From a virus (Duplodnaviria > Caudoviricetes): a stretch of 64,000 nt of DNA. The translations under genes and the position numbers were made by a program. The stretch covers positions 7,108-71,107 of the IMG/VR virus record IMGVR_UViG_2930556935_000001. The stretch is one strand, 5' to 3'. The notes under the pieces are model-generated. The model worked only from the letters and a program-made list of their open reading frames with translations, searched no databases and was not told the DNA's origin. This document shows positions 6,901 through 58,031 of the stretch, one piece after another (position 1 is the first letter of the stretch; each line of letters starts with the position of its first letter).

Positions 6901-7922
6901 TAGTACGTCGAAGTGTCCTGCGCGGCGGTGCAGTTGGTCGTCGTGTATTCGGGGGCGTCCGTCAGCGTCTCGAAGTCCGCACTCTGCACGGAGAGCAGGT
7001 TCGAGCTGTCCCGCAGCGTGAGCGCCGCCGAAGAGTCGAAGGCGTCCGGGACGACGGAGACGACGCCGATACCCGGAGTGCCGGACACCGTGTTGTCGTC
7101 CCCGGGCACGCCGGGCGAGGGGCCCTGTACGGCGAACGCCCTGCCCACCCACGTGCTCTTCGCTCCGAAGGATGAGTAGACCCGCACGTACACGCTGTAC
7201 GCGTCGGCGTTGATCGACGTCGGCAGCGTCTCGCTGATGATGTCGCCGGTCACCGTGCGCGCGAACGCGGCCGGCGACCTGTCGGGATCGAACGTCGACT
7301 CCGCTACCTGGATCGCCGTGAACACCTTGTACTCGGCTTTCGCCTGCGGGTCGCCGTCCGCCTGCGCGTACGTCCAGCTGATAACCGGGGACGGGGTCAG
7401 CACGGTGCCGGTCGGCGCCTCTACGGTGACCGTCGGCCGGACGCGGTAGTTGATCTGCGCGTACACCTTGTACACGCGGATGCAGTCGAAGACCGCGCTC
7501 ACGCTGAAGCACTGGCAGAGCAGCTTGTTCAGCCGGTGGATGTCCCACGGGTGCCCGAGAGGGTCACGCGTGTACGTCGCCACCTCGTACGTCTGGATCG
7601 ACGTAATCGGGTAGATGGTGCGGCTCGTGAACTTCGAGGTGTCGTCCAGGCATGAGACGTTCACCGTGACCGACCGCGAGCCGAACCCCACCTTCGCGCA
7701 CCGGATGTAGATGGTCACCGACGTGATGACAGCGCCGTCCGGAACCGTGTTGATGTCGACGGGGAACCTGACGCAAGCCCTCCCCTTGTGGGGAGGGTTG
7801 CGGCAGTACTTCGTGTCGTCATCGTTGTTCCAGCAGTGGAAGAGTCGGGACACGGCCGTGCCCACCAATGACCAACCTTCATTCCTGAAATCGTCATTGC
7901 AGATGTGGGCAAGACCTGTCAT
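3960..7922 (-). CDS. large minor tail protein (distal tail / receptor binding, carbohydrate-binding-like domains)
   Basis: 1320 aa, Thr/Ser/Gly-rich, directly after tape measure; internally duplicated domain (NKPAGV..GDLMVA...LKRTAGGSEPSSW twice). Confidence 0.8.
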   Translation of the reverse strand: MTGLAHICNDDFRNEGWSLVGTAVSRLFHCWNNDDDTKYCRNPPHKGRACVRFPVDINTVPDGAVITSVTIYIRCAKVGFGSRSVTVNVSCLDDTSKFTSRTIYPITSIQTYEVATYTRDPLGHPWDIHRLNKLLCQCFSVSAVFDCIRVYKVYAQINYRVRPTVTVEAPTGTVLTPSPVISWTYAQADGDPQAKAEYKVFTAIQVAESTFDPDRSPAAFARTVTGDIISETLPTSINADAYSVYVRVYSSFGAKSTWVGRAFAVQGPSPGVPGDDNTVSGTPGIGVVSVVPDAFDSSAALTLRDSSNLLSVQSADFETLTDAPEYTTTNCTAAQDTSTYYAGVASLKLTASSAATMSVQGPFVELSPLAPVTVRAQLRSAVTARTCNARIRFYDETFTALGGTVTGTVTDSTSTWTEAVGTGTSPAGTVHARVEVEVASPANAEVHNVDHVGLMYGANAPWSDGGHASRNILSAFSATGDDPVGDNWIAGTGSSISRVAVTGTGSHGSLTKRLTYTGITPSLAFRATGTAFTSPTSGTDFTLNKPAGVTTGDLMVAFVSSNQHGGITPPVGWTAVNVASVDDGTTDTALFILKRTAGGSEPSSWTDGVLSATSTRRYAVVVAYSGAADASDQFIAEGVLTRATGTPLYLTSAVINNSDANAWRLSAFAVSDSTAGGSLVANIAPPTTSADISYVGKGTAWTATANATTYTINRPSGVVSGDLMVATVAISDTVVATLTAPSGWTVVRQITEVDGTASLRFAVLKRTAGGSEPSSWSGALSATVKPVVTQVSAYRNADTAANQFIAENTSQVGSGNTVTTASVTNTDSRAWRISAFGASGDYYTTWGSTSEVTERSDASAEYQISTFAYRTATLMMTDSNGPVGTGSHSRTGVLNRNFYGGASWIGLIKPLPSAPAAGANETERNDTTVGSADPWLTTGVYDSNGVVPIGATSVTGAFTPGSGTDLNSAASWVGLIKPAVPQVSGRTSAAMPDAIEVSGIDPAILRLAGQRVTFTSAFLGSAAGTPYLKLLFYRANQLISSQTIQGSSFGTTTWVKSSGVFDIPEGTTRIKGEVAVTDRAVSDLVYFDRVGIMLGLSPVWRNGTGRTTHAVWHSPVIQYADDDGTGYGDWQTLSGLDTSPPVFDPLSGVATYTDHTIIPLVNRRYRAQTISYGLAGDQFVSGYGPASDEVSLSALNWWLKDITDPDSNISLRVAWETIQVGTTGTSVMYQPLGEALPLVLTEGYKGDALELTLRMRREEYAPLRKLLRSGRTLFLQSDVDHAWWVRPIGDIQAEILPTGQRKVDPIRNVKITFVQVAAPV

Positions 7923-50095: not shown

Positions 50096-50162
50096 TCCTC
50101 ATCAACGCGAACTCCGGGACAGAGGTGAACGGATGAGGTATCTCTGTCGAGTGACTAGCCTT

Positions 50163-52094
50163 ATGCCGTCCACGCAGGCGCCGGACTGGCCGCACTGCGG
50201 TGAGAACGCACATCCCGTCAACGATCCAGTCGGTTGTCGAGGCATCCGGCTCCCTCGGCTGACCACGTGTATGGCGCACGCCGCGCCTGCCGATCGAATT
50301 CAATACCTCGCAGAGCTGGGGCAGGGCTCAAACGTCGACCACCGCGGAACCGAATTCACTCAGGAGTTGCTGAACGATCTATGCAGTGCAGTTAAACATC
50401 CGCTTGGCGGACCACCTAGATTTGGGGTAGGCGACTTCCGAGAAGCAACCTTCTCCGAGTACGCAACTTTCGGAAGCGCAAGTTTCCAGGGTGGAGCACT
50501 CTTCTCAGAGGCAATCTTCTCGGATGAGTGTCAGTTTTGGGATTCGACGTTTAAGGAAATCGCAGATTTCAGCGGAACCACATTTACAGGGTTCGCGCGA
50601 TTCGGCGATGTCCATTTTGCACCCTCGACCACATTCGCCGGAGCCAAGTTCGAATCCGGCACGCACTTCAACGGCGCAAATTTTCCCTCGGACGTCAGTT
50701 TCCGAGATGCCCAGTTCTGCGGCGCCACTAATTTCCAAGAAGTCACTTACGGCGGGAAGTCGGACTACAGTAAAGCCCATTTTTCCAGCGCGGCAAATTT
50801 CATGGATGCCGATTTCAACAAGTCAAGCTGGTTCGACCAATGCATATTTAACGGTTCGGCACACTTTGACGCAGCACATTTTCGCGGCGACGCGCGCTTC
50901 GTGCGCACTTCATTTAAAGGGGGTGTCACCTTCACCGGCACCGACCTGTCTTCAGCCGGACTATTTGTCGGCGCAGAGTTTGACGAGAAGGTCGCCATCG
51001 GACCACTCACCTGCACAGGGCGGCTCAGCTTCGACAATGCGGTATTCAGGCAGTGGGTTACCATCCACGCTTCAGCCAGCCATGTCTCCTGCTGTCGCTC
51101 CCGGTTCGAGGAACCTGTAACTTTTGCCTTGAGAGAAGCCTCCGTAGACCTTACGGACGTCCTCCTGCTTCACTCCTGCACGGTCAAGATCGGACACAAT
51201 GCCGACGGCAACCGTCATCGCGTTTCCATAGCGGCAGGAATGTCTCCCCGTGACCCGACTCCCGCGATAGTGTCTCTCAGCGGCGCAGACGCAGCCTTGA
51301 TCCTATTGTCAGATGTCGATCTTACAGCCTGCTCGTTTGAAGGCACACATCATTTGGACCAACTGCGTCTCGAAGGGAGCTGGCAACTACACACAACTCC
51401 TCAAGGATGGCGCAGAGGTTATTTCATCCCTATGAGATGGGCTAAACGGCAAATCATTGAGGAGGAAAGGAAGTGGCGAGCACTTAGGTACCTCCCCAGA
51501 TATCACCGTCTTGACTGGGGCCTCCCGCCGGACAGACCCGAGTACGTGCCAAGCCTTCCCGCACTGGCCGCTATTTACCGCCAGCTCCGTAAGGCACGCG
51601 AGGACGCGAAGGACGAACCGGGCGCCGCGGACTTCTACTACGGCGAGATGGAGATGCGCCGCTTCAGCAAGGGATGGAAGTCGGCAGAGCGCTGGCTACT
51701 TCAGCTGTACTGGCTGCTGTCCGGGTACGGGCTGCGTGCCTCGCGCGCGCTGGGCTGGCTCGCCCTCGCGATGATGACGACGATCCTGCTGATGATGGGC
51801 TTCGGCCTGCCTCAGGATTCCCCCAAGCAGGAGGCGACTGGCGTCGTGCCGCCCGGCGGCGGCAAGGTCACCTTCGAGATCGACAAGGAAGACCCACGCA
51901 ACCCAACCGGGGACCACTTCACGGGCGAGCGGTTCGACAAGGCGCTGAGCGTCACCCTCAACTCGGTCGTCTTCCGGTCCAGCGGTGAGGACTTGACGAC
52001 GGCCGGCGGGTACATCGAGATGGCATCACGCTTCTCCGAACCTGTCCTTCTCGGTCTCGCAGCCCTCGCGATCCGGGGGCGGGTCAAGCGGTGA
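50163..52094 (+). CDS. pentapeptide-repeat protein with C-terminal membrane domain (moron)
   Basis: A.F..A.F repeats; YRQLRKA.ED.KDEPGAADFYYGEMEMRR; YWLLSGYGLRASRA plus TM/pore-like segment; start uncertain (50133 or 50163). Confidence 0.9.
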   Translation: MPSTQAPDWPHCGENAHPVNDPVGCRGIRLPRLTTCMAHAAPADRIQYLAELGQGSNVDHRGTEFTQELLNDLCSAVKHPLGGPPRFGVGDFREATFSEYATFGSASFQGGALFSEAIFSDECQFWDSTFKEIADFSGTTFTGFARFGDVHFAPSTTFAGAKFESGTHFNGANFPSDVSFRDAQFCGATNFQEVTYGGKSDYSKAHFSSAANFMDADFNKSSWFDQCIFNGSAHFDAAHFRGDARFVRTSFKGGVTFTGTDLSSAGLFVGAEFDEKVAIGPLTCTGRLSFDNAVFRQWVTIHASASHVSCCRSRFEEPVTFALREASVDLTDVLLLHSCTVKIGHNADGNRHRVSIAAGMSPRDPTPAIVSLSGADAALILLSDVDLTACSFEGTHHLDQLRLEGSWQLHTTPQGWRRGYFIPMRWAKRQIIEEERKWRALRYLPRYHRLDWGLPPDRPEYVPSLPALAAIYRQLRKAREDAKDEPGAADFYYGEMEMRRFSKGWKSAERWLLQLYWLLSGYGLRASRALGWLALAMMTTILLMMGFGLPQDSPKQEATGVVPPGGGKVTFEIDKEDPRNPTGDHFTGERFDKALSVTLNSVVFRSSGEDLTTAGGYIEMASRFSEPVLLGLAALAIRGRVKR

Positions 52095-52574: not shown

Positions 52575-53438
52575 TTACGGCTGGAACGTCGCCGCGATCA
52601 TGCGTGCTTGACCGTCCGACATGGACTCCACGTTGGGCACGCCCTTCGACTGAAGGAACGCGACCAACTGCGGGTCAAGGGCGGAAGGAGCAGGCTGCGG
52701 GGCAGCCGGGGCCGGGCTCGCAGCCTGGGGTGCACCCTGCGGCGCCGCGCCCCACTGCTGCGCAGAGGGAGAGGCGGGGGGCGTCTGGGCAGGGGCTCCC
52801 GGCGCTGTACCGGCAGGCTGCCCCCACTGCCCCGCCGGAGGGCCCTGCGGCGCCTGAGCGGGCGCCTGCCACTGCCCCGGCGGAGGACCGGCCGGAGCCT
52901 GCTGCGGAGCCGCCTGCGTGCCCTGCCACGGGTCGTACGGCAGCTGCTGCGACGCGTACTGAGGCTGCGCTCCGTACGGGGCCTGAGCGGGCGCCTGTCC
53001 GTACTGCGGCGCCGCCTGCGCCTGCGGCTGCGCGAACTGCTGCCGCGGATGCGTCTGGATGTACATCTGCGCACTCGCCGCGTCCTGGTCGGAGAAGTCC
53101 GTCAGGTGGTAGGCACCCGACTTCTGTCCCTGCGCGGGAGTCTGCGCGAGACGCCCGAGGACCATCGCCCCGAGCTGCGTCTTCAGCTGCGGCACGAGAG
53201 CCTTGCCGCCGATGGTCGTTCCGGCGAGGACCGTCGGCTGCCCGGTCTGCGGGTCCACCAGGTCGATGATGACCACGTCGGCTTCCACCATGTCCACCGG
53301 ACCTTCGTCCGCCTGGAACGTCTTGGTGACGACGCGGTCCGGATAGATCAGGAACAGCCGACCGAGCCAGTCGGCGTGATCCCGCGGCGAGAAGAACCCC
53401 GAGTTCTTCGCCGGCTGATTGAACGGGCTTGTTGTCAC
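52575..53438 (-). CDS. putative single-stranded DNA-binding protein with Gln/Pro/Ala-rich tail
   Basis: Beta-rich N-domain (GRLFLIYP...VEADVVIID...VLGRL), long low-complexity tail; in recombination cluster. Confidence 0.6.
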   Translation of the reverse strand: MTTSPFNQPAKNSGFFSPRDHADWLGRLFLIYPDRVVTKTFQADEGPVDMVEADVVIIDLVDPQTGQPTVLAGTTIGGKALVPQLKTQLGAMVLGRLAQTPAQGQKSGAYHLTDFSDQDAASAQMYIQTHPRQQFAQPQAQAAPQYGQAPAQAPYGAQPQYASQQLPYDPWQGTQAAPQQAPAGPPPGQWQAPAQAPQGPPAGQWGQPAGTAPGAPAQTPPASPSAQQWGAAPQGAPQAASPAPAAPQPAPSALDPQLVAFLQSKGVPNVESMSDGQARMIAATFQP

Positions 53439-53700: not shown

Positions 53701-53924
53701 CGTGTGTGCTCCTCTACTTGCAGGGATGCGAGGGGTAGTGGCCGAACACCACGACCGCGATGACGGCCGCAGTGATGGCGGCCATCGTCAGAAGCCGCCG
53801 CGTCACGGCATCTCCGATCGTTTGGCGCCGCAGCCGCTGCACGTCCAGCGCAGCGGGCCGCGAGTCATCTCCGTCCAGCGGTGAAGGGCCGGGAACGCGC
53901 CGTGCAGCAGGGCGAGCAGCAGCA

Positions 53925-54113
53925 TCACGCGATCCGCTCCGACCGGGAGTCTTCGAGCAGCGCGCGCACTTCGTCTTCCACGTAGCGGCGCATACCGCCC
54001 ACCGTCCGGACGGTGGTCAGCTTCCCGGCCTTCGCCCACCGGGTCACGGTGCGCGGGTCGACGCGGAACAGCGTCGCCACCTCAGCCGGCGTCAGAAGGG
54101 ATTCGGTTTCCAT
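53925..54113 (-). CDS. bldC: BldC-family MerR-like HTH regulator
   Basis: LLTPAEVATLFRVDPRTVTRWAKAGKLTTVRTVGGMRRY..EVRALL closely matches Streptomyces BldC as I recall it; RBS AAGGAGG. Confidence 0.85.
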   Translation of the reverse strand: METESLLTPAEVATLFRVDPRTVTRWAKAGKLTTVRTVGGMRRYVEDEVRALLEDSRSERIA

Positions 54114-54133
54114 TGGGTCCACCTCCTTCGATG

Positions 54134-56074
54134 TCATGAGCGGCCGTTGCAGCCGCGCGTCATGCCCGGATCGCCGGGCGCGAAGAACGGGCAGAAGCGG
54201 CAGTCGTCAGCAACGGGGAACTGCCGGGCGATGCCCAGGCTCTGAGCGTTGATGTCCAGGCTCTGAGCGTTGATGTCCAGGCCCGCCCACGTGGCGCGCT
54301 CCGTCTCGTACGCCTTCACCTCGCCTGCGATCCGGTCGACCCGCGCGAAGGCATCGCGTGCCACCTGCGGGTCGTACGGCTCGATGACGGCGTACATGTC
54401 GGCGAGGCTGGACGCTTCGCGCGGCCACGAGATCAGCGCGACGAAGTCGACGACCTCGCCCTTGAGGCGCTGCCCATATCCGTACGTGTGCAGCTGCACG
54501 CGGTAGCCGGGCGGGATGCCCTGCGTCTTCAGCTTGTCCAGCGACCAACGGCCCTGCGCCTTGTGGTCATCGACCATGCACAGCGTGCGGTCAAGCAGGT
54601 CCGCCGTCCCCTTCGGCACGTGCTCGTTCGGGAACGTCAGCCGCTGCTCGACAGCGAAGCGGCCCGTACCGGCGTCCGCCCACATGAACATCTCGGCGAG
54701 CCCGGCATGGATGCAGGTGCCGACGAACGCCGCCCACCCGTCGCCGCCCGGGTTCACTGCCGGGATGCCCAGCAGGGACATCGCTAGGCGGCGGTCGCAC
54801 GGCGTGCCGTACTCGGAGGGACCGAGCGTCACCTGAGCCGACCGGTTGTCTTCGGTGTTGCGGTTGTCGTAGGCGTAGAACAGTTCCTTCATCCGCGCGA
54901 CGACCCGTTCCGCGAGGACCGTCATCGGGATCGGATCCGTCACAGCCGCAGGCAGCTTGGCCGGCTGACTGAACGGACTGCCGGGCTGCGAGAACGGCGA
55001 CTCACTCGAAGGCGGCGCATCCGCTCGGGTCGTCGGGGTCGCAGCCGTCGAAAGCTCCGCATCCGGTGTCGGCGTGAGGGCAGCGCCCACCGCCGGGGCA
55101 GCCGCAGGTTCCGGGGCTGCACTGTCCGTGCTGGTGCTCGCCGGGGTGCGGGCACTGTTCGGGAAGAGCTTCGCCAGCGCCTCGATGTCCGGCGGCACCG
55201 CAACCTCCGTTGCAGGCTGCGGGGTCGGGGCAGCATCCGTCCCAGTCCCGCTGCTCTTCGTCGGTGAAGCCGGGGCCGCGATTGCATCCGTTGACGGGGC
55301 AGCTTCCGGACTTCCATCCGTGATCGCACTCGTCGGGCTTGACTCCCCGGCACCAGCACCAGCCGCAGAGCCCGCACCAGTTCGGTTCGTTGCAGGTGTC
55401 GAGGGGCTCGAAGGCGGCGCCGCGGGTGCGTCGGGTCGCGGCGGCAAGGCCGGCTGCATAGGCGTCGACTCCGGGGATGGATCCATCTCCGGCAGCTTCC
55501 GGTCCTCGATCTCCCGCACCTTCATCGCCCACCTGCTGACCATCTGCTCGGCTTCCGTCGGCTCCGGCTCCGTACGTGCCGCAGTCGCAGGCGCTGCCTC
55601 CGCAGGCGTCCCCAGCGGGGCAGCCGTAGCGGGCGCTGCCTTCGGGGATAGGGGCTCGCTCGGAGGGTCCGATGCATCGTCGGGTGACGTCGCAGGTGAA
55701 GGGTGACGGGCAGTTTCCGGTACAGAGCATTCCTCCCCCTCCGGGGTGTAGGGCCGGCCGGACATGGGGCAGTTGACGCGGTCCGCGCTCGGCACGTTGG
55801 GGACCCTGACGTGCAGCGTGAACTTGCCGTCGTCGTCCAGCAGCGGGGACCGCTTGCAGTCCGGGCACGGCGCGTAGTCCCGCCCGAGGGCGGGGCGGTC
55901 GTCCTCTTCGGTCTCCGGTCCGCGCCGCACCATCCAGCCCGGAATGATGGTGCGCGAGTTCTCGCATTCCACGCCCGGCATTCCGTCGTGTTTGCGGTAG
56001 CGCAGCGGGCTCGGGGACGCCCCCGTTGCCGTCACGTTCTTATGGCACTTGCGGCAGTTGTACTTGTCAGCCAC
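54134..56074 (-). CDS. Cas4/RecB-like PD-(D/E)XK exonuclease with N-terminal Zn fingers and long Pro/Ala/Thr/Ser linker
   Basis: GPSEYGTPCDRR, GTCIH, GTADL..VDDHK, QLHTYG, CRFCPF...C (Fe-S ligands). Confidence 0.88.
   Translation of the reverse strand: MADKYNCRKCHKNVTATGASPSPLRYRKHDGMPGVECENSRTIIPGWMVRRGPETEEDDRPALGRDYAPCPDCKRSPLLDDDGKFTLHVRVPNVPSADRVNCPMSGRPYTPEGEECSVPETARHPSPATSPDDASDPPSEPLSPKAAPATAAPLGTPAEAAPATAARTEPEPTEAEQMVSRWAMKVREIEDRKLPEMDPSPESTPMQPALPPRPDAPAAPPSSPSTPATNRTGAGSAAGAGAGESSPTSAITDGSPEAAPSTDAIAAPASPTKSSGTGTDAAPTPQPATEVAVPPDIEALAKLFPNSARTPASTSTDSAAPEPAAAPAVGAALTPTPDAELSTAATPTTRADAPPSSESPFSQPGSPFSQPAKLPAAVTDPIPMTVLAERVVARMKELFYAYDNRNTEDNRSAQVTLGPSEYGTPCDRRLAMSLLGIPAVNPGGDGWAAFVGTCIHAGLAEMFMWADAGTGRFAVEQRLTFPNEHVPKGTADLLDRTLCMVDDHKAQGRWSLDKLKTQGIPPGYRVQLHTYGYGQRLKGEVVDFVALISWPREASSLADMYAVIEPYDPQVARDAFARVDRIAGEVKAYETERATWAGLDINAQSLDINAQSLGIARQFPVADDCRFCPFFAPGDPGMTRGCNGRS
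54235..54281. repeat. 21-bp in-frame tandem duplication
   Basis: CCAGGCTCTGAGCGTTGATGT twice plus CCAGG; encodes LDINAQS twice. Confidence 0.9.
55002..55730 (-). CDS. putative overprinted Cys-rich protein nested in the exonuclease linker
   Basis: ATG preceded by GGAGGGGGAGGA; 242 aa with 28 Cys in clusters; alternate frame of same strand. Confidence 0.55.
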   Translation of the reverse strand: MLCTGNCPSPFTCDVTRRCIGPSERAPIPEGSARYGCPAGDACGGSACDCGTYGAGADGSRADGQQVGDEGAGDRGPEAAGDGSIPGVDAYAAGLAAATRRTRGAAFEPLDTCNEPNWCGLCGWCWCRGVKPDECDHGWKSGSCPVNGCNRGPGFTDEEQRDWDGCCPDPAACNGGCGAAGHRGAGEALPEQCPHPGEHQHGQCSPGTCGCPGGGRCPHADTGCGAFDGCDPDDPSGCAAFE

Positions 56075-56095
56075 CGCCGCCCCCTGTCGGTGTGT

Positions 56096-56488
56096 TCACG
56101 GGTCGTCCAATCGTCGGGCGGGCGGAAACTTCAGATAGCGGTACGCCCGCTTGAAGAATTCGAGTTCGTCACGGGCGTGACCGAGCAGCGTGTTACAGGG
56201 ACGGCATAGAAGTCCGCGCACATCCCCCGTTGCGTGATCGTGATCAATGGAAAGGCGCCGCGTCTTTCCGGTTGCTCTCAGGCAGATAGGGCAGCGTCCG
56301 CCTTGCAGCGCGTACAAGCGGTCGTAGTCGCCGGGCCCAAGCCCGTACGTCTTCTGCGCCCGCGTCTCGTGCGCCGCCGCCTTACGCCGCTTCTTCTCTT
56401 CCCGGTGATGCGTTGCGCATCTCGGTCCGGGATTCGGAGCGGGTCTCTTGCTGCCCGGCGGGCAGTCCTTGCACGGCTTCTCCGGCAT
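56096..56488 (-). CDS. endonuclease VII (Holliday junction resolvase family)
   Basis: YGL...Y..L...QGGRCPIC...LSIDHDHATGDVRGLLCRPCN.LLG. Confidence 0.92.
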   Translation of the reverse strand: MPEKPCKDCPPGSKRPAPNPGPRCATHHREEKKRRKAAAHETRAQKTYGLGPGDYDRLYALQGGRCPICLRATGKTRRLSIDHDHATGDVRGLLCRPCNTLLGHARDELEFFKRAYRYLKFPPARRLDDP

Positions 56489-56654
56489 CGCCCTCCGCTT
56501 TCCACTTCTCGGCCTTCACGGCAGGGTCGACGTAGCCGGGGCGCGCGATGCCGCAAGCGCAACACCAGTCCGATTCCACGTTCATGGATGGAACGCCGAT
56601 CGCGGAGTTCCATAAGTGCTCGCCTTTGAGCAACTCCCGGTGACACATGGCCTG

Positions 56655-58031
56655 TTAGGTCGCCATGGATTCGAGGGCGCAGCCGACCAGGTCTCGCGCC
56701 ATGTTCACGGGCACGGCGTTACCGGCCATGCGGACGCGGTCGCGCTTGCTGATCACCTCGGCGAGCCAGTCGTACGACTCGGGGAAGTCCATGAACCGCG
56801 CGTACTCCGGCGGCGTGATCATGCGGAATCCGCAGTCGTTGATGTCCGGCTGCGGATCGGGCATGAGCGCGGCCCGGTCGACCGTCGTCACCGTCATGAA
56901 CGGCTCTTCGGTGGTCCGCGCCTTCGTCCGGCCGTAGTACGGGATGACCAGGCCGTGATGGTTCCCCGACGCGCACACCGTCGACAGCGGCTCGGACACG
57001 CGCCGGGCTTTGCTGCTGCCGCCGCGGAGTTCCGCGATGAACGGCGGGACCAGCAGCCCCGTCTCGTTGCGGGCGGTCACCGTACGCATCGGCGCGTCGA
57101 CGGAGAACGGACGCTTCCCGTCGCGGCCTTCGACCGGGACCAGGGCGCGGCCGTACTCCGTGAGCCCGTACTGGATCCGCGACATCGTCTTGTCCGCGAG
57201 CGGCACCAGGCGCTGCCCGATCAGCTGCGCGGGCAGTGACCAGTCGATGACGTCCCGCGCCGCCCTGACGTACGGACGGACCGGGCCGGCGCAGTTGCGG
57301 CACACGAACGTGTACTGCGTCCGGTACTTCCCCGCGTCGCGGCCCGGCTTCCACGTCTGCCGTCCCGTCGTCGGGCCGCAGTCGGCACACAGCGCGCGAG
57401 GCGCTATCCACCGGTCGATGTCCGGGCAGCGCGTCCCCTTCGGGTGCATGAGGCAGAACCAGCGGTCGCGCCACTGGTGCGCTGCGGGACCGAGCCGGCC
57501 CGCATGCGCAGCGTTCAGGTACACCTCGTGCAGGCACTTCCCGCCGTCCGACATGGCCATCTTCCATGCGCGGAAGCCGACCCACTTGCGCACTTCGACG
57601 ACGTTTTCGACGACCACGAAGCGGTAGCGGAAGTACTCGTCGAACCGCTGGACGTCCCACATCGTCGCCCGGCTGCGCTCGCCTTCCTGGTCGGCGAGCA
57701 GGACGCTTTCCTTGATCCCCTGCGCGATGCTGTGCTTCGTGCACGACGGGGAGAACCAGGCGCAGTCGGTGCGCGGATAGCGCCGCGGATCCACCTGCGA
57801 CATGTCCGCACAGTCGTGGTCCGTATCAGGGTTGTTGGCCTGATGGACGTCGACCGCCTTACGCCAGTGATTGATGGCGATACGCGTCCGCTGCCCGGGA
57901 AGCAGGTGAATGCCGCGGGTCGATCCGCCGCCACCGGCGAAGCCGTCCAGCCAGCTGAGATCACCGAGCCGCGCGAGCAGTTCGTACAGCGCCATGCGTT
58001 CTTCGATGGGCAAGGCTCCCCCTCCGGGCAT
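56655..58031 (-). CDS. DNA (cytosine-5)-methyltransferase
   Basis: Motif I FAGGGG, IV SPSC, VI VENV, VIII QWRDRWF, X GNAVP; start uncertain (57996-58049). Confidence 0.92.
   Translation of the reverse strand: MPGGGALPIEERMALYELLARLGDLSWLDGFAGGGGSTRGIHLLPGQRTRIAINHWRKAVDVHQANNPDTDHDCADMSQVDPRRYPRTDCAWFSPSCTKHSIAQGIKESVLLADQEGERSRATMWDVQRFDEYFRYRFVVVENVVEVRKWVGFRAWKMAMSDGGKCLHEVYLNAAHAGRLGPAAHQWRDRWFCLMHPKGTRCPDIDRWIAPRALCADCGPTTGRQTWKPGRDAGKYRTQYTFVCRNCAGPVRPYVRAARDVIDWSLPAQLIGQRLVPLADKTMSRIQYGLTEYGRALVPVEGRDGKRPFSVDAPMRTVTARNETGLLVPPFIAELRGGSSKARRVSEPLSTVCASGNHHGLVIPYYGRTKARTTEEPFMTVTTVDRAALMPDPQPDINDCGFRMITPPEYARFMDFPESYDWLAEVISKRDRVRMAGNAVPVNMARDLVGCALESMAT

Follow-up and report, generated by a model that had tools for sequence, protein, structure and literature searches.

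Introduction

How can a gene that lies wholly inside another gene, read from the same strand in a different frame, be told apart from the shadow open reading frames (ORFs) of a high-GC genome, which make embedded genes easy to dismiss? The question is raised by a stretch of 64,000 nucleotides from a virus of the Caudoviricetes (positions 7,108 to 71,107 of record IMGVR_UViG_2930556935_000001; hereafter the window, whose numbering is used throughout), which forms part of a 71-kb virus record and has a G+C content of 59-71%. Its minus-strand gene at 54134-56074 (646 codons) encodes a protein of 646 amino acids in which a zinc-finger-like N-terminal domain is joined to a Cas4-family exonuclease by a linker rich in proline, alanine, threonine and serine (P/A/T/S). 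Within this linker lies a second ORF (55002-55730, minus strand; 242 codons plus TGA), whose product would contain 28 cysteine, six histidine and five tryptophan residues. The frame of the exonuclease gene is referred to here as the main frame and that of the embedded ORF as the alternative frame. Embedded out-of-frame genes are known in phages but, to our knowledge, very few are long and almost none has been documented in high-GC genomes; a search of the literature found no description of this one. The comparisons set out below make it probable that 55002-55730 is a real, separately translated gene under selection, embedded in a mosaic dual-coding region, and not a shadow ORF.

The embedded reading frame and its homologous loci

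The alternative frame is +2 relative to the main frame, such that its first codon position coincides with the third position of the exonuclease codons. Its ATG (55730-55728) stands directly behind the Shine-Dalgarno (SD)-like sequence GGAGGGGGAGGA (55742-55731, minus strand), which encodes (P)EGEE in the main frame and has a purine-rich counterpart at the same place in homologues, and it closes at a TGA (55004-55002). The frame is also open farther upstream, from an ATG at 55967 (321 amino acids). An earlier, sequence-only reading of the window had picked out this 242-codon frame, with its ribosome-binding site, and had described a 28-cysteine product with clustered motifs; the count of 28 was confirmed and every motif that it quoted is present. 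The predicted protein includes IPGVDAYAAGLAAATR and ends in ..CAAFE.

The embedded ORF was compared across 12 DNA loci, comprising the window and 11 full-length homologues taken from genome and viral collections, whose main proteins are 53-80% identical to that of the window (alignment A1). A scan of metagenomes added one 1173-bp fragment, which was left out of the comparison. Over the overlap, which spans 103-242 codons depending on the locus, neither the alternative nor the main frame contains a single stop in any of the 12 loci, and each of the four other frames is interrupted in at least 10 of them. The alternative frame also starts at the same place in all 12. Nor is the long exonuclease ORF resolved by its homologues into two genes flanking an ordinary cysteine-rich gene, since its frame is open at every locus and a 17-codon island inside the overlap evolves as main-frame coding sequence (see below).

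The embedded products, which run from 103 residues in L014 to 242 in the window, are assembled from a limited set of motifs, the subsets of which differ from locus to locus. IPGVD[DA]YAxGL is found in all 12 and CPHPGxHxxxxCSPxxCGCPG in 11, RCPxADTGCGTFDGC..C in seven, with further variants, a CGGCCxCxGGC block in five, and CxEPNWCGLCGWCWCRG and GVPYIGxEPDCAYCPPxxCxxCPxxCxxC in four each.

Two further observations concern the same stretch of the homologous genes. A main-frame Cys/His insert, C[HY]I..DH.PH.W[MV]...R.A.C.GK, lies inside the overlap of five loci (L003, L007, L005, L024 and L026) and in four proteins (P0011, P0015, P0018 and P0022). Over CH..H.PH.WM..C.GK, changes are flat (6/6/6 at the three codon positions, with only three sequences matched) and the alternative frame reads as low-complexity sequence; this may be the reverse arrangement, with a main-frame motif serving as an alternative-frame spacer. 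A separate exonuclease homologue, L015 (G127:C1:616447-620337), whose match contains one TGA and one TAG, has a short N-terminal part and no embedded ORF, and may be a decayed prophage copy.

Codon usage and tests against chance

Because alternative position 1 is main position 3, each TGY cysteine codon needs a T at the third position of an exonuclease codon. The earlier reading had argued that this base is disfavoured in the genome, and the codon counts bear this out: T and A occupy 0.189 and 0.115, respectively, of third positions in the 244 exonuclease codons that overlap the embedded ORF; the corresponding values are 0.057 and 0.040 for the gene's other 402 codons and 0.068 and 0.045 for a reference set of 3621 codons from the window. 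Followed along the gene, the G+C content of main-frame third positions (GC3) ranges from 0.83 to 1.00 over the N-terminal domain and from 0.87 to 0.97 over the nuclease, and falls to 0.47-0.73 under the cysteine-rich stretches. It holds at 0.90 under EQMVSRWAMKVREIE, in keeping with the suggestion that some stretches of the overlap are protein-like in the exonuclease frame.

When the overlapped exonuclease codons were resampled synonymously at reference usage, the alternative frame of the window was expected to hold 4.0 ± 1.9 cysteine codons, with a maximum of 12, and none of 5000 resamplings reached the observed 28. The excess recurs at all 12 loci, which have 8-28 alternative-frame cysteines each against 1.4-4.0 expected (maximum 6-13; 2000 resamplings per locus), a 4- to 9-fold enrichment. 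Permuting the overlap's own synonymous codons gave a mean of 9.7 alternative-frame stops, and in 0 of 5000 permutations was there one stop or fewer. Together, the resampling and the permutation indicate that the rare T and A bases are placed so as to make cysteine codons and to avoid stops.

The frame under selection

The two frames were also compared by the positions at which they change. Ten motif blocks (A, C, D1, D2, E1, E2, G1, G2, H1 and H2) were defined and changes counted by Fitch parsimony on a tree of the nuclease domain. In six of these cysteine motif blocks (C, G1, G2, H1, A and E1) the alternative reading is better conserved than the main one (identity 0.56-0.85 and 0.41-0.71, respectively) and the differences fall mostly at the alternative wobble position. 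The clearest cases are three modules. Module C (alternative residues 85-101, IPGVDAYAAGLAAATRR; 55428-55478, minus strand), a predicted helix present in all 12 loci with G87, D89, Y91 and R101 invariant, has an alternative-frame identity of 0.69 against 0.54 in the main frame, and 13/11/30 changes at alternative positions 1/2/3. Module G (residues 180-213, AGHRGAGEALPEQCPHPGEHQHGQCSPGTCGCPG; 55092-55193, minus strand), where the main frame reads PPDIEALAKLFPNSARTPASTSTDSAAPEPAAAP, has C193, P196, C209 and C211 invariant; its two blocks have identities of 0.77 against 0.49-0.50 and changes of 7/9/19 and 10/9/29. Module H (residues 216-242, RCPHADTGCGAFDGCDPDDPSGCAAFE; 55005-55085, minus strand) forms the C-terminus, and its first half, common to seven of the 12 loci, has an identity of 0.85 against 0.71 and 5/5/13 changes.

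Summed over all ten blocks, the changes number 111/110/185 at alternative positions 1/2/3, compared with 338/264/829 at main positions 1/2/3 of the nuclease domain. The fit of the blocks to a model in which only the main frame is constrained is poor (chi-squared 229), and a contingency test separates them from the nuclease domain (p 3e-34). The same behaviour appears in nucleotide alignments made blind to frame. Between the window and L001, over gene nucleotides 900-990, the mismatch is 0.03/0.37/0.03 at main positions 1/2/3; right after the alternative stop it turns to 0.13/0.27/0.47, the classical pattern. The window against L025 and L014 against L008 behave alike. At the level of residues, cysteine, histidine, tryptophan and tyrosine codons of the alternative frame are conserved between loci whose main proteins differ to the extent given above.

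These data bear on a rival reading, that there is no second protein: the alternative frame would be a high-GC shadow, and its motifs would result from constraint on the nucleotides themselves (through RNA structure, recombination or repeat modules) or from odd codon usage in a fast-evolving linker. Many long shadow ORFs are found in high-GC genomes, and several in this window; the openness of the frame is unremarkable at each locus, mismatch over the whole span is flat, and no homologue of the product was found. However, a three-base periodicity in which the alternative wobble is the most variable position occurs in six of the ten blocks, the codons of particular amino acids are conserved, cysteine is in excess at all 12 loci, and stops are avoided despite the enrichment of T and A at main third positions. 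Furthermore, start and stop are formed from main codons that are rare in the window, and features of this kind are not expected from constraints on RNA or DNA. We consider this rival very improbable, and the argument of the earlier reading that the pattern departs from the usual high-GC shadow ORF is sustained.

Two other candidate readings of the same sequence were rejected. PPDIEALAKLFP, proposed as a main-frame island, lies where, over module G, the alternative reading is far better conserved, and the residues adjoining it behave likewise by eye. An antisense ORF (55074-55706, plus strand) has its wobble position in common with the main frame, and minus-sense frames contain stops in most homologues.

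Evidence that the main frame is also constrained

The overlap does not evolve throughout as alternative-frame coding sequence. One main-frame island, EAEQMVSRWAMKVREIEDRKLP (main residues 174-195; 55490-55555, minus strand), has a main GC3 of 0.90, and the alternative frame reads there as a spacer rich in glycine, aspartate and arginine. This island, taken as the 17 codons of EEMISKWA plus IEDRxLP, lies between alternative-frame motifs and shows 13/5/21 changes at main positions 1/2/3; the distribution departs from that of the cysteine motifs (p 1.3e-4) but cannot be told apart from that of the nuclease domain (p 0.32).

A second sign comes from the alternative wobble base, which at the 12 loci is C in 0.46-0.61, G in 0.14-0.20 and A in 0.17-0.24 of codons, compared with reference values of 0.455, 0.43 and 0.045. 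As this base is the second position of the main codons, the skew towards C and A and the avoidance of G yield alanine, proline, threonine and serine, together with aspartate, glutamate, asparagine, lysine and glutamine, in place of glycine, arginine, cysteine and tryptophan, that is, a soluble, hydrophilic linker. The avoidance of G implies selection on the main-frame reading.

A reading in which only the cysteine-rich frame is functional in the middle of the gene, the 646-residue read-through being a tolerated and meaningless joining of a zinc-finger gene to a nuclease gene across an intervening gene that has no stops in its +1 frame, has to be set against these patterns. Several points speak for it. 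With the alternative protein as the only given, the main frame would lack stops by chance with a P of 0.07-0.87 at the individual loci, so that its openness is weak evidence by itself; a P/A/T/S composition is what results when the third position of a GC3-rich gene is read as a second position; main GC3 within the motifs is only 0.47-0.73; and the nuclease domain occurs alone in other actinophages, in L004 directly after an endonuclease VII gene. Conversely, the main frame is open at 12 of 12 loci and the 13 proteins of alignment A1 run through the linker uninterrupted. Multiplying the chance values of the single loci gives ~2e-6, a figure that is overstated since the loci are related. The island EEMISKWA plus IEDRxLP keeps a main-frame pattern, the alternative wobble avoids G at all 12 loci, and ribosomes translating the N-terminal domain would meet no stop, such that the fusion would be made in any case. 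We therefore regard a meaningless read-through as improbable.

Putative internal start and stop signals

At all 12 loci the alternative frame starts exactly on the last cysteine codon of the N-terminal domain (NNA/G-TGY), which provides the TG of the start codon, and a purine-rich, SD-like sequence lies upstream. The start is ATG in seven loci and GTG in five. The internal ATGs are completed by the main codons GAA, CCA and TCA, and in the sister loci described below by GGA, CCA and CGA. Among the reference codons, CCA, TCA and GGA make up 1.9%, 5.1% and 6.2% of their respective synonymous sets; CCA-TGC is found in L008 and TCA-TGT in L002. RNA around the start of the embedded ORF folds less stably than shuffled sequences (z +1.53).

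In the window the alternative stop (TGA, 55002-55004, minus strand) is built from the main codons AGT-GAG, two codons ahead of the main motif PFSQPGSPFSQP. Across the loci, it lies 0-2 codons before the main-frame motif FxQPxxPFxQP in 11 of 12 and ~49 codons before it in L025. The T of the stop is supplied in every case by the third position of a main codon ending in T (AGT six times, ACT twice, and TAT, ATT, CTT and GCT once each). The next alternative stop is 28-136 codons farther on, where one exists before the end of the gene (there is none in L007). Both putative signals are conserved and built from main codons that are rare in the window.

A similar helix motif in the exonuclease frame of sister lineages

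Ten shorter relatives of the main protein were fetched, and six of them (P0062, P0068, P0033, P0034, P0032 and P0050), as well as the loci L035, L036 and L040, carry in the exonuclease frame the motif LPGVxEYAxxL, followed by ..Q..AY[KR]..V...L[TS]PFSQP. It is located between the zinc finger and the FSQP motif, in the position of alternative-frame module C, with which it aligns over 26 columns (hhalign E 1.3e-4, probability 53.7%). In some lineages this helix is apparently part of the nuclease polypeptide, and in that of the window it would be part of the embedded protein. By the logic applied to genes that are fused in some genomes and split in others, the difference suggests that embedded protein and nuclease act together.

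Sister loci L035, L036, L040, L046, L044 and L049 also contain cysteine-rich alternative-frame ORFs in the P/A/T/S stretch, at the same junction and behind an AGGAGG-like sequence, and sister starts (GGA-TGC, CCA-TGC and CGA-TGC) again fall on the last cysteine codon of the zinc finger. In the sister loci with the helix in the exonuclease frame (L035, L036 and L040) this ORF sits upstream of the helix. The embedded gene may accordingly be much more widespread than the family of the window. L035, L036 and L040 share the alternative-frame motif C..CD[YL][FY]D[AK]L. In L037, a metagenome-derived viral contig, the alternative-frame helix PIPGVDDYAEQLAEAA directly abuts the main-frame continuation KQQLDAYRPQFPFSQP (QQLDAYRPQFPFSQP), and the two halves that are split between frames here are contiguous in a single frame in L035 and L036; either the frame has changed recently or there is an indel error close to a poly-proline run.

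The helix is also the main argument for a different mechanism, in which a single polypeptide would be made by programmed frameshifting, with a -1 shift at the end of the zinc finger, translation of the cysteine-rich frame and a +1 shift back before the nuclease, such that the cysteine motifs and the helix would belong to the nuclease protein. On this account the presence of LPGVxEYAxxL in frame with the nuclease in sister lineages, its alignment with module C, the abutment of the alternative-frame helix on the main-frame continuation QQLDAYRPQFPFSQP in L037, and the lack of an alternative stop near the junction in L044 and L049 would all be expected. The hhalign probability is, however, only 53.7%, and the L037 contig may carry indel errors. 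None of the 12 loci has a canonical slippery sequence (X XXY YYZ) in the interval from the last upstream alternative stop to the first alternative motif, and a relaxed form occurs only in L002. The P-site codons at the alternative stops (GAG, GTA, GAT, CCT, GAC and GGC) cannot re-pair in the +1 frame. A separate gene, for its part, requires just such a conserved start with an SD-like sequence and a conserved stop, and the main-evolving island EEMISKWA..IEDRxLP between alternative motifs would require four shifts. Programmed frameshifting is consequently held to be highly improbable.

The predicted embedded protein

The modules of the predicted protein are unevenly shared. Residues 1-19 (MLCTGNCPSPFTCDVTRRC; 55674-55730, minus strand) form a putative cysteine knuckle that is absent from the other 11 loci and is modelled by AlphaFold2 (AF2) with a predicted local distance difference test score (pLDDT) of 75-84 over residues 1-20. 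Within residues 24-50 (ERAPIPEGSARYGCPAGDACGGSACDC; 55581-55661, minus strand), the part ERAPIPEG is common to L025, and module D (residues 113-129, CNEPNWCGLCGWCWCRG; 55344-55394, minus strand), where the main frame reads ATNRTGAGSAAGAGAG, is common to L005, L024 and L026. Residues 135-177 (55200-55328, minus strand), with the cysteine motifs CDHGWKSGSCPVNGC and CCPDPAACNGGC, have no counterpart in the other 11 loci. Apart from the N-terminal knuckle, AF2 predicts one helix, at residues 88-102 (pLDDT 76-87), within a model of low overall confidence. The compact sister protein P0034 was likewise modelled poorly (pLDDT 52.4).

Searches for relatives were made in several ways. None of the 12 alternative-frame proteins matches a Pfam family at E 1, and none matches PHROGs, NCBIfam or the PDB. 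Their profile finds no HMM match among 1.84 billion representative proteins and none in a word-indexed search; in the ESM Atlas the best score for an alternative-frame protein is 0.79, below the threshold for a lead. In 50,697 phage records tblastn with the protein found nothing, scans of viral contigs with single proteins were also negative, and the profile, run in six frames over 374 Streptomyces genomes, matched only four exonuclease loci that were already known.

As to function, the earlier reading had proposed a metallothionein-like or multi-Zn/Fe-S protein, with a possible link to the Fe-S cluster that the nuclease itself would need. Metallothioneins are small, about one-third cysteine, and have few or no aromatic residues. 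The embedded products are 7.8-11.6% cysteine and contain 4-13 aromatic residues (phenylalanine, tryptophan or tyrosine) in 103-242 amino acids, a composition that is not that of a metallothionein. The CxxCxxCxxxC spacing of ferredoxin-type 4Fe-4S motifs is not found in the alternative-frame protein of the window; it occurs once each in five of the 12 loci (L003, L007, L005, L006 and L025), within the CGGCCxCxGGC motif. We infer that the Cys/His motifs would bind metal, most simply as zinc knuckles.

The exonuclease gene and its surroundings

The gene that carries the overlap lies downstream of genes for a C5 DNA methylase and an endonuclease VII. Its N-terminal Cys/His domain (main residues 1-116, ending in PEGEEC; 55727-56074, minus strand) has an exonuclease-frame pattern of substitution and eight residues that are invariant in alignment A1 (C7, C10, H29, C37, C70, C73, C102 and C116); it matches no Pfam or NCBIfam family. 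The part coded in the main frame only (54137-54997, minus strand) comprises the PFSQPGSPFSQP motif and the exonuclease domain and contains invariant columns in alignments A1 and A4. Conserved in the latter domain are C426, D492, D503-H504-K505, C625, C628 and C642 (invariant in A1). The four cysteines are candidate Fe-S ligands, and D492 with D503-H504-K505 a candidate PD-(D/E)xK catalytic set.

Main residues 400-636 match PHROG 1674 ('exonuclease'; E 2.7e-45), and PHROG 1990 ('Cas4-domain exonuclease') is matched with E 3e-4; no Pfam family reaches E 0.01 with the main protein. A tblastn search matched 361 actinophage records. Among the matches listed, all lie within main residues 372-645 and most are annotated as exonuclease or Cas4 exonuclease. 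Judged by these matches, the C-terminal ~275 residues are a Cas4-family exonuclease. Of 8000 candidates scored, 255 are relatives of the main protein with E <= 0.001. The full-length ones, from Streptomyces genomes and other assemblies, have 52-73% BLASTP identity, and alignment A1 (13 proteins) shows both terminal domains and several stretches of the linker to be conserved.

The window's exonuclease contains a seven-residue tandem duplication, DINAQSL DINAQSL (21 nucleotides twice; 54236-54277, minus strand), whose second copy is absent from the other 12 proteins of A1. A scan of 53900-56700 for promoters and terminators found none. The adjacent gene (52575-53438, minus strand; 287 amino acids) has a long C-terminal half rich in glutamine, proline, alanine and glycine, is overlapped in other frames by several long ORFs, and matches two PHROGs without an assigned function, 870 and 1288. 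Farther away, a 653-residue ORF on the opposite strand (50133-52094, plus strand) occupies the segment of lowest G+C in the window (0.586). Short repeats of the A/S-x-F type are numerous in it and its C-terminal part is hydrophobic; it matches no PHROG family and looks like an acquired accessory gene.

Weighing the probable embedded gene

A number of observations weigh against a real embedded gene. Openness of the alternative frame is in itself unremarkable, with P 0.21 for the window in the 5000-run resampling, 0.059 in a 2000-run resampling, and 0.03-0.32 per locus. The motif blocks were picked from the alternative-frame alignment, which favours alternative-frame conservation, and four of them show no alternative pattern (D1 15/8/11, D2 7/9/11, E2 13/14/11 and H2 20/19/23). 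Over the whole overlap the mismatch at the three positions is flat, 0.29/0.28/0.32 in five independent pairs, compared with 0.15/0.12/0.40 in the nuclease, although flat rates are expected from mixed constraints or from the misalignment of motifs that are not shared. The main cysteine codon dictates the TG of the start, and a glutamate codon ahead of it leaves only A and G for the preceding base; at five of the 12 loci the start is GTG, and in L014 the GGAGGA abuts the ATG, an unfavourable distance. Nothing in the other loci corresponds to residues 1-23 and 135-177, about one-third of the protein of the window, which leaves residues 135-177, taken alone, without comparative support. A single polypeptide would account more simply for the helix motif in the exonuclease frame of the sister lineages, and in L044 and L049 the alternative frame runs on with no nearby stop. 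AF2 confidence for the protein is low (pLDDT 53.2). Finally, as no relative was found in the databases searched, the case for the gene is drawn from 12 related loci only.

The embedded gene is nonetheless the explanation that we favour, in which one mRNA would be read twice. Ribosomes starting at 56074 would produce the 646-residue protein, whose overlapped part would be a hydrophilic P/A/T/S spacer, and ribosomes starting at the internal SD-ATG (55742-55728) would produce the 242-residue cysteine-rich protein and terminate at the TGA (55004-55002) before FxQPxxPFxQP. The region would be a mosaic in which the folded mini-motifs of either protein form the low-complexity spacer of the other. The embedded protein might act as a separate subunit or regulator that works with the nuclease, a guess prompted by the likeness of IPGVDxYAxGL to the helix of the sister lineages.

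A broader proposal, which we put forward tentatively, is that of interleaved dual coding with frame-hopping modules, in which two proteins sharing 300-730 bp would each consist of short folded motifs set apart by low-complexity spacers, and motifs are gained, lost and moved between frames. The embedded protein would then be a detachable, probably metal-binding, subunit of the nuclease, and some P/A/T/S linkers of high-GC actinobacteria and actinophages would be the footprints of hidden genes in a frame shifted by one base.

If the embedded gene is real, it represents an orphan protein family missed by every gene caller, and it shows that a P/A/T/S linker which looks disordered can arise as a side effect of a concealed gene. 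The locus would also offer a natural example of constraint passing from one frame to the other and back, and of a motif that has seemingly changed frames between lineages. This bears on the annotation of linkers in actinobacterial genomes and on the origin of genes by overprinting, and could be tested in Streptomyces phages and prophages.

Comparison with known systems

Long overlapping genes have been described in Pseudomonas aeruginosa, where antisense chromosomal ORFs are reported to be supported by purifying selection and evidence of translation (PMC8850804). As there, a long alternative-frame ORF in a high-GC genome is argued to be real from signatures of selection; the ORF described here differs in being a same-strand phage ORF known from sequence alone.

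The host gene resembles the Cas4-family, PD-(D/E)xK exonucleases of actinophages, its main residues 372-645 matching these and PHROG 1674. Those enzymes consist of the nuclease domain alone; in the present family it is preceded by a Cys/His domain at the N-terminus and by a linker, 100-250 codons long, in which the embedded gene is located.

The embedded product shares with small, cysteine-rich metal-binding proteins (zinc knuckles or ribbons and metallothioneins) clusters of four to eight cysteine and histidine residues spaced as CxxC, CxC and CC, a scarcity of hydrophobic residues and, when no metal is present, little predicted order. It matches none of these families by sequence or profile in Pfam, the PDB or NCBIfam, and a cysteine content of 7.8-11.6% with 4-13 aromatic residues does not fit a metallothionein.

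Among actinophages, out-of-frame HNH homing endonucleases occur inside methylase genes, as in ShiLan, and are reported to behave as sporadic mobile insertions. There too, the frame of the host gene is read through without stops, the other frame specifies a protein that has a start and a stop of its own, and the host reading is regarded as a tolerated loop or linker. A homing endonuclease insertion of the ShiLan type was considered for the present locus and rejected, as neither an HNH nor any other family was matched in Pfam (none of the 12 proteins at E 1), PHROGs, NCBIfam or the PDB. In contrast to such sporadic insertions, the embedded ORF is present in all 12 loci of the family, fills the whole inter-domain linker, and gains and loses motifs.

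A further parallel is Rz1 of phage lambda, which is embedded out of frame inside Rz and encodes a short lipoprotein of the lysis complex in phages of Gram-negative hosts, the two products acting in cooperation. As with Rz and Rz1, a complete gene with its own start and stop would lie wholly within a phage gene, on the same strand and in another frame; cooperation between the two products is, in the present case, only a guess. Unlike Rz1, the embedded product is 103-242 residues long, rich in cysteine and modular, it is carried by a DNA-metabolism gene of high-GC actinophages, and the frame under constraint alternates along the overlap.

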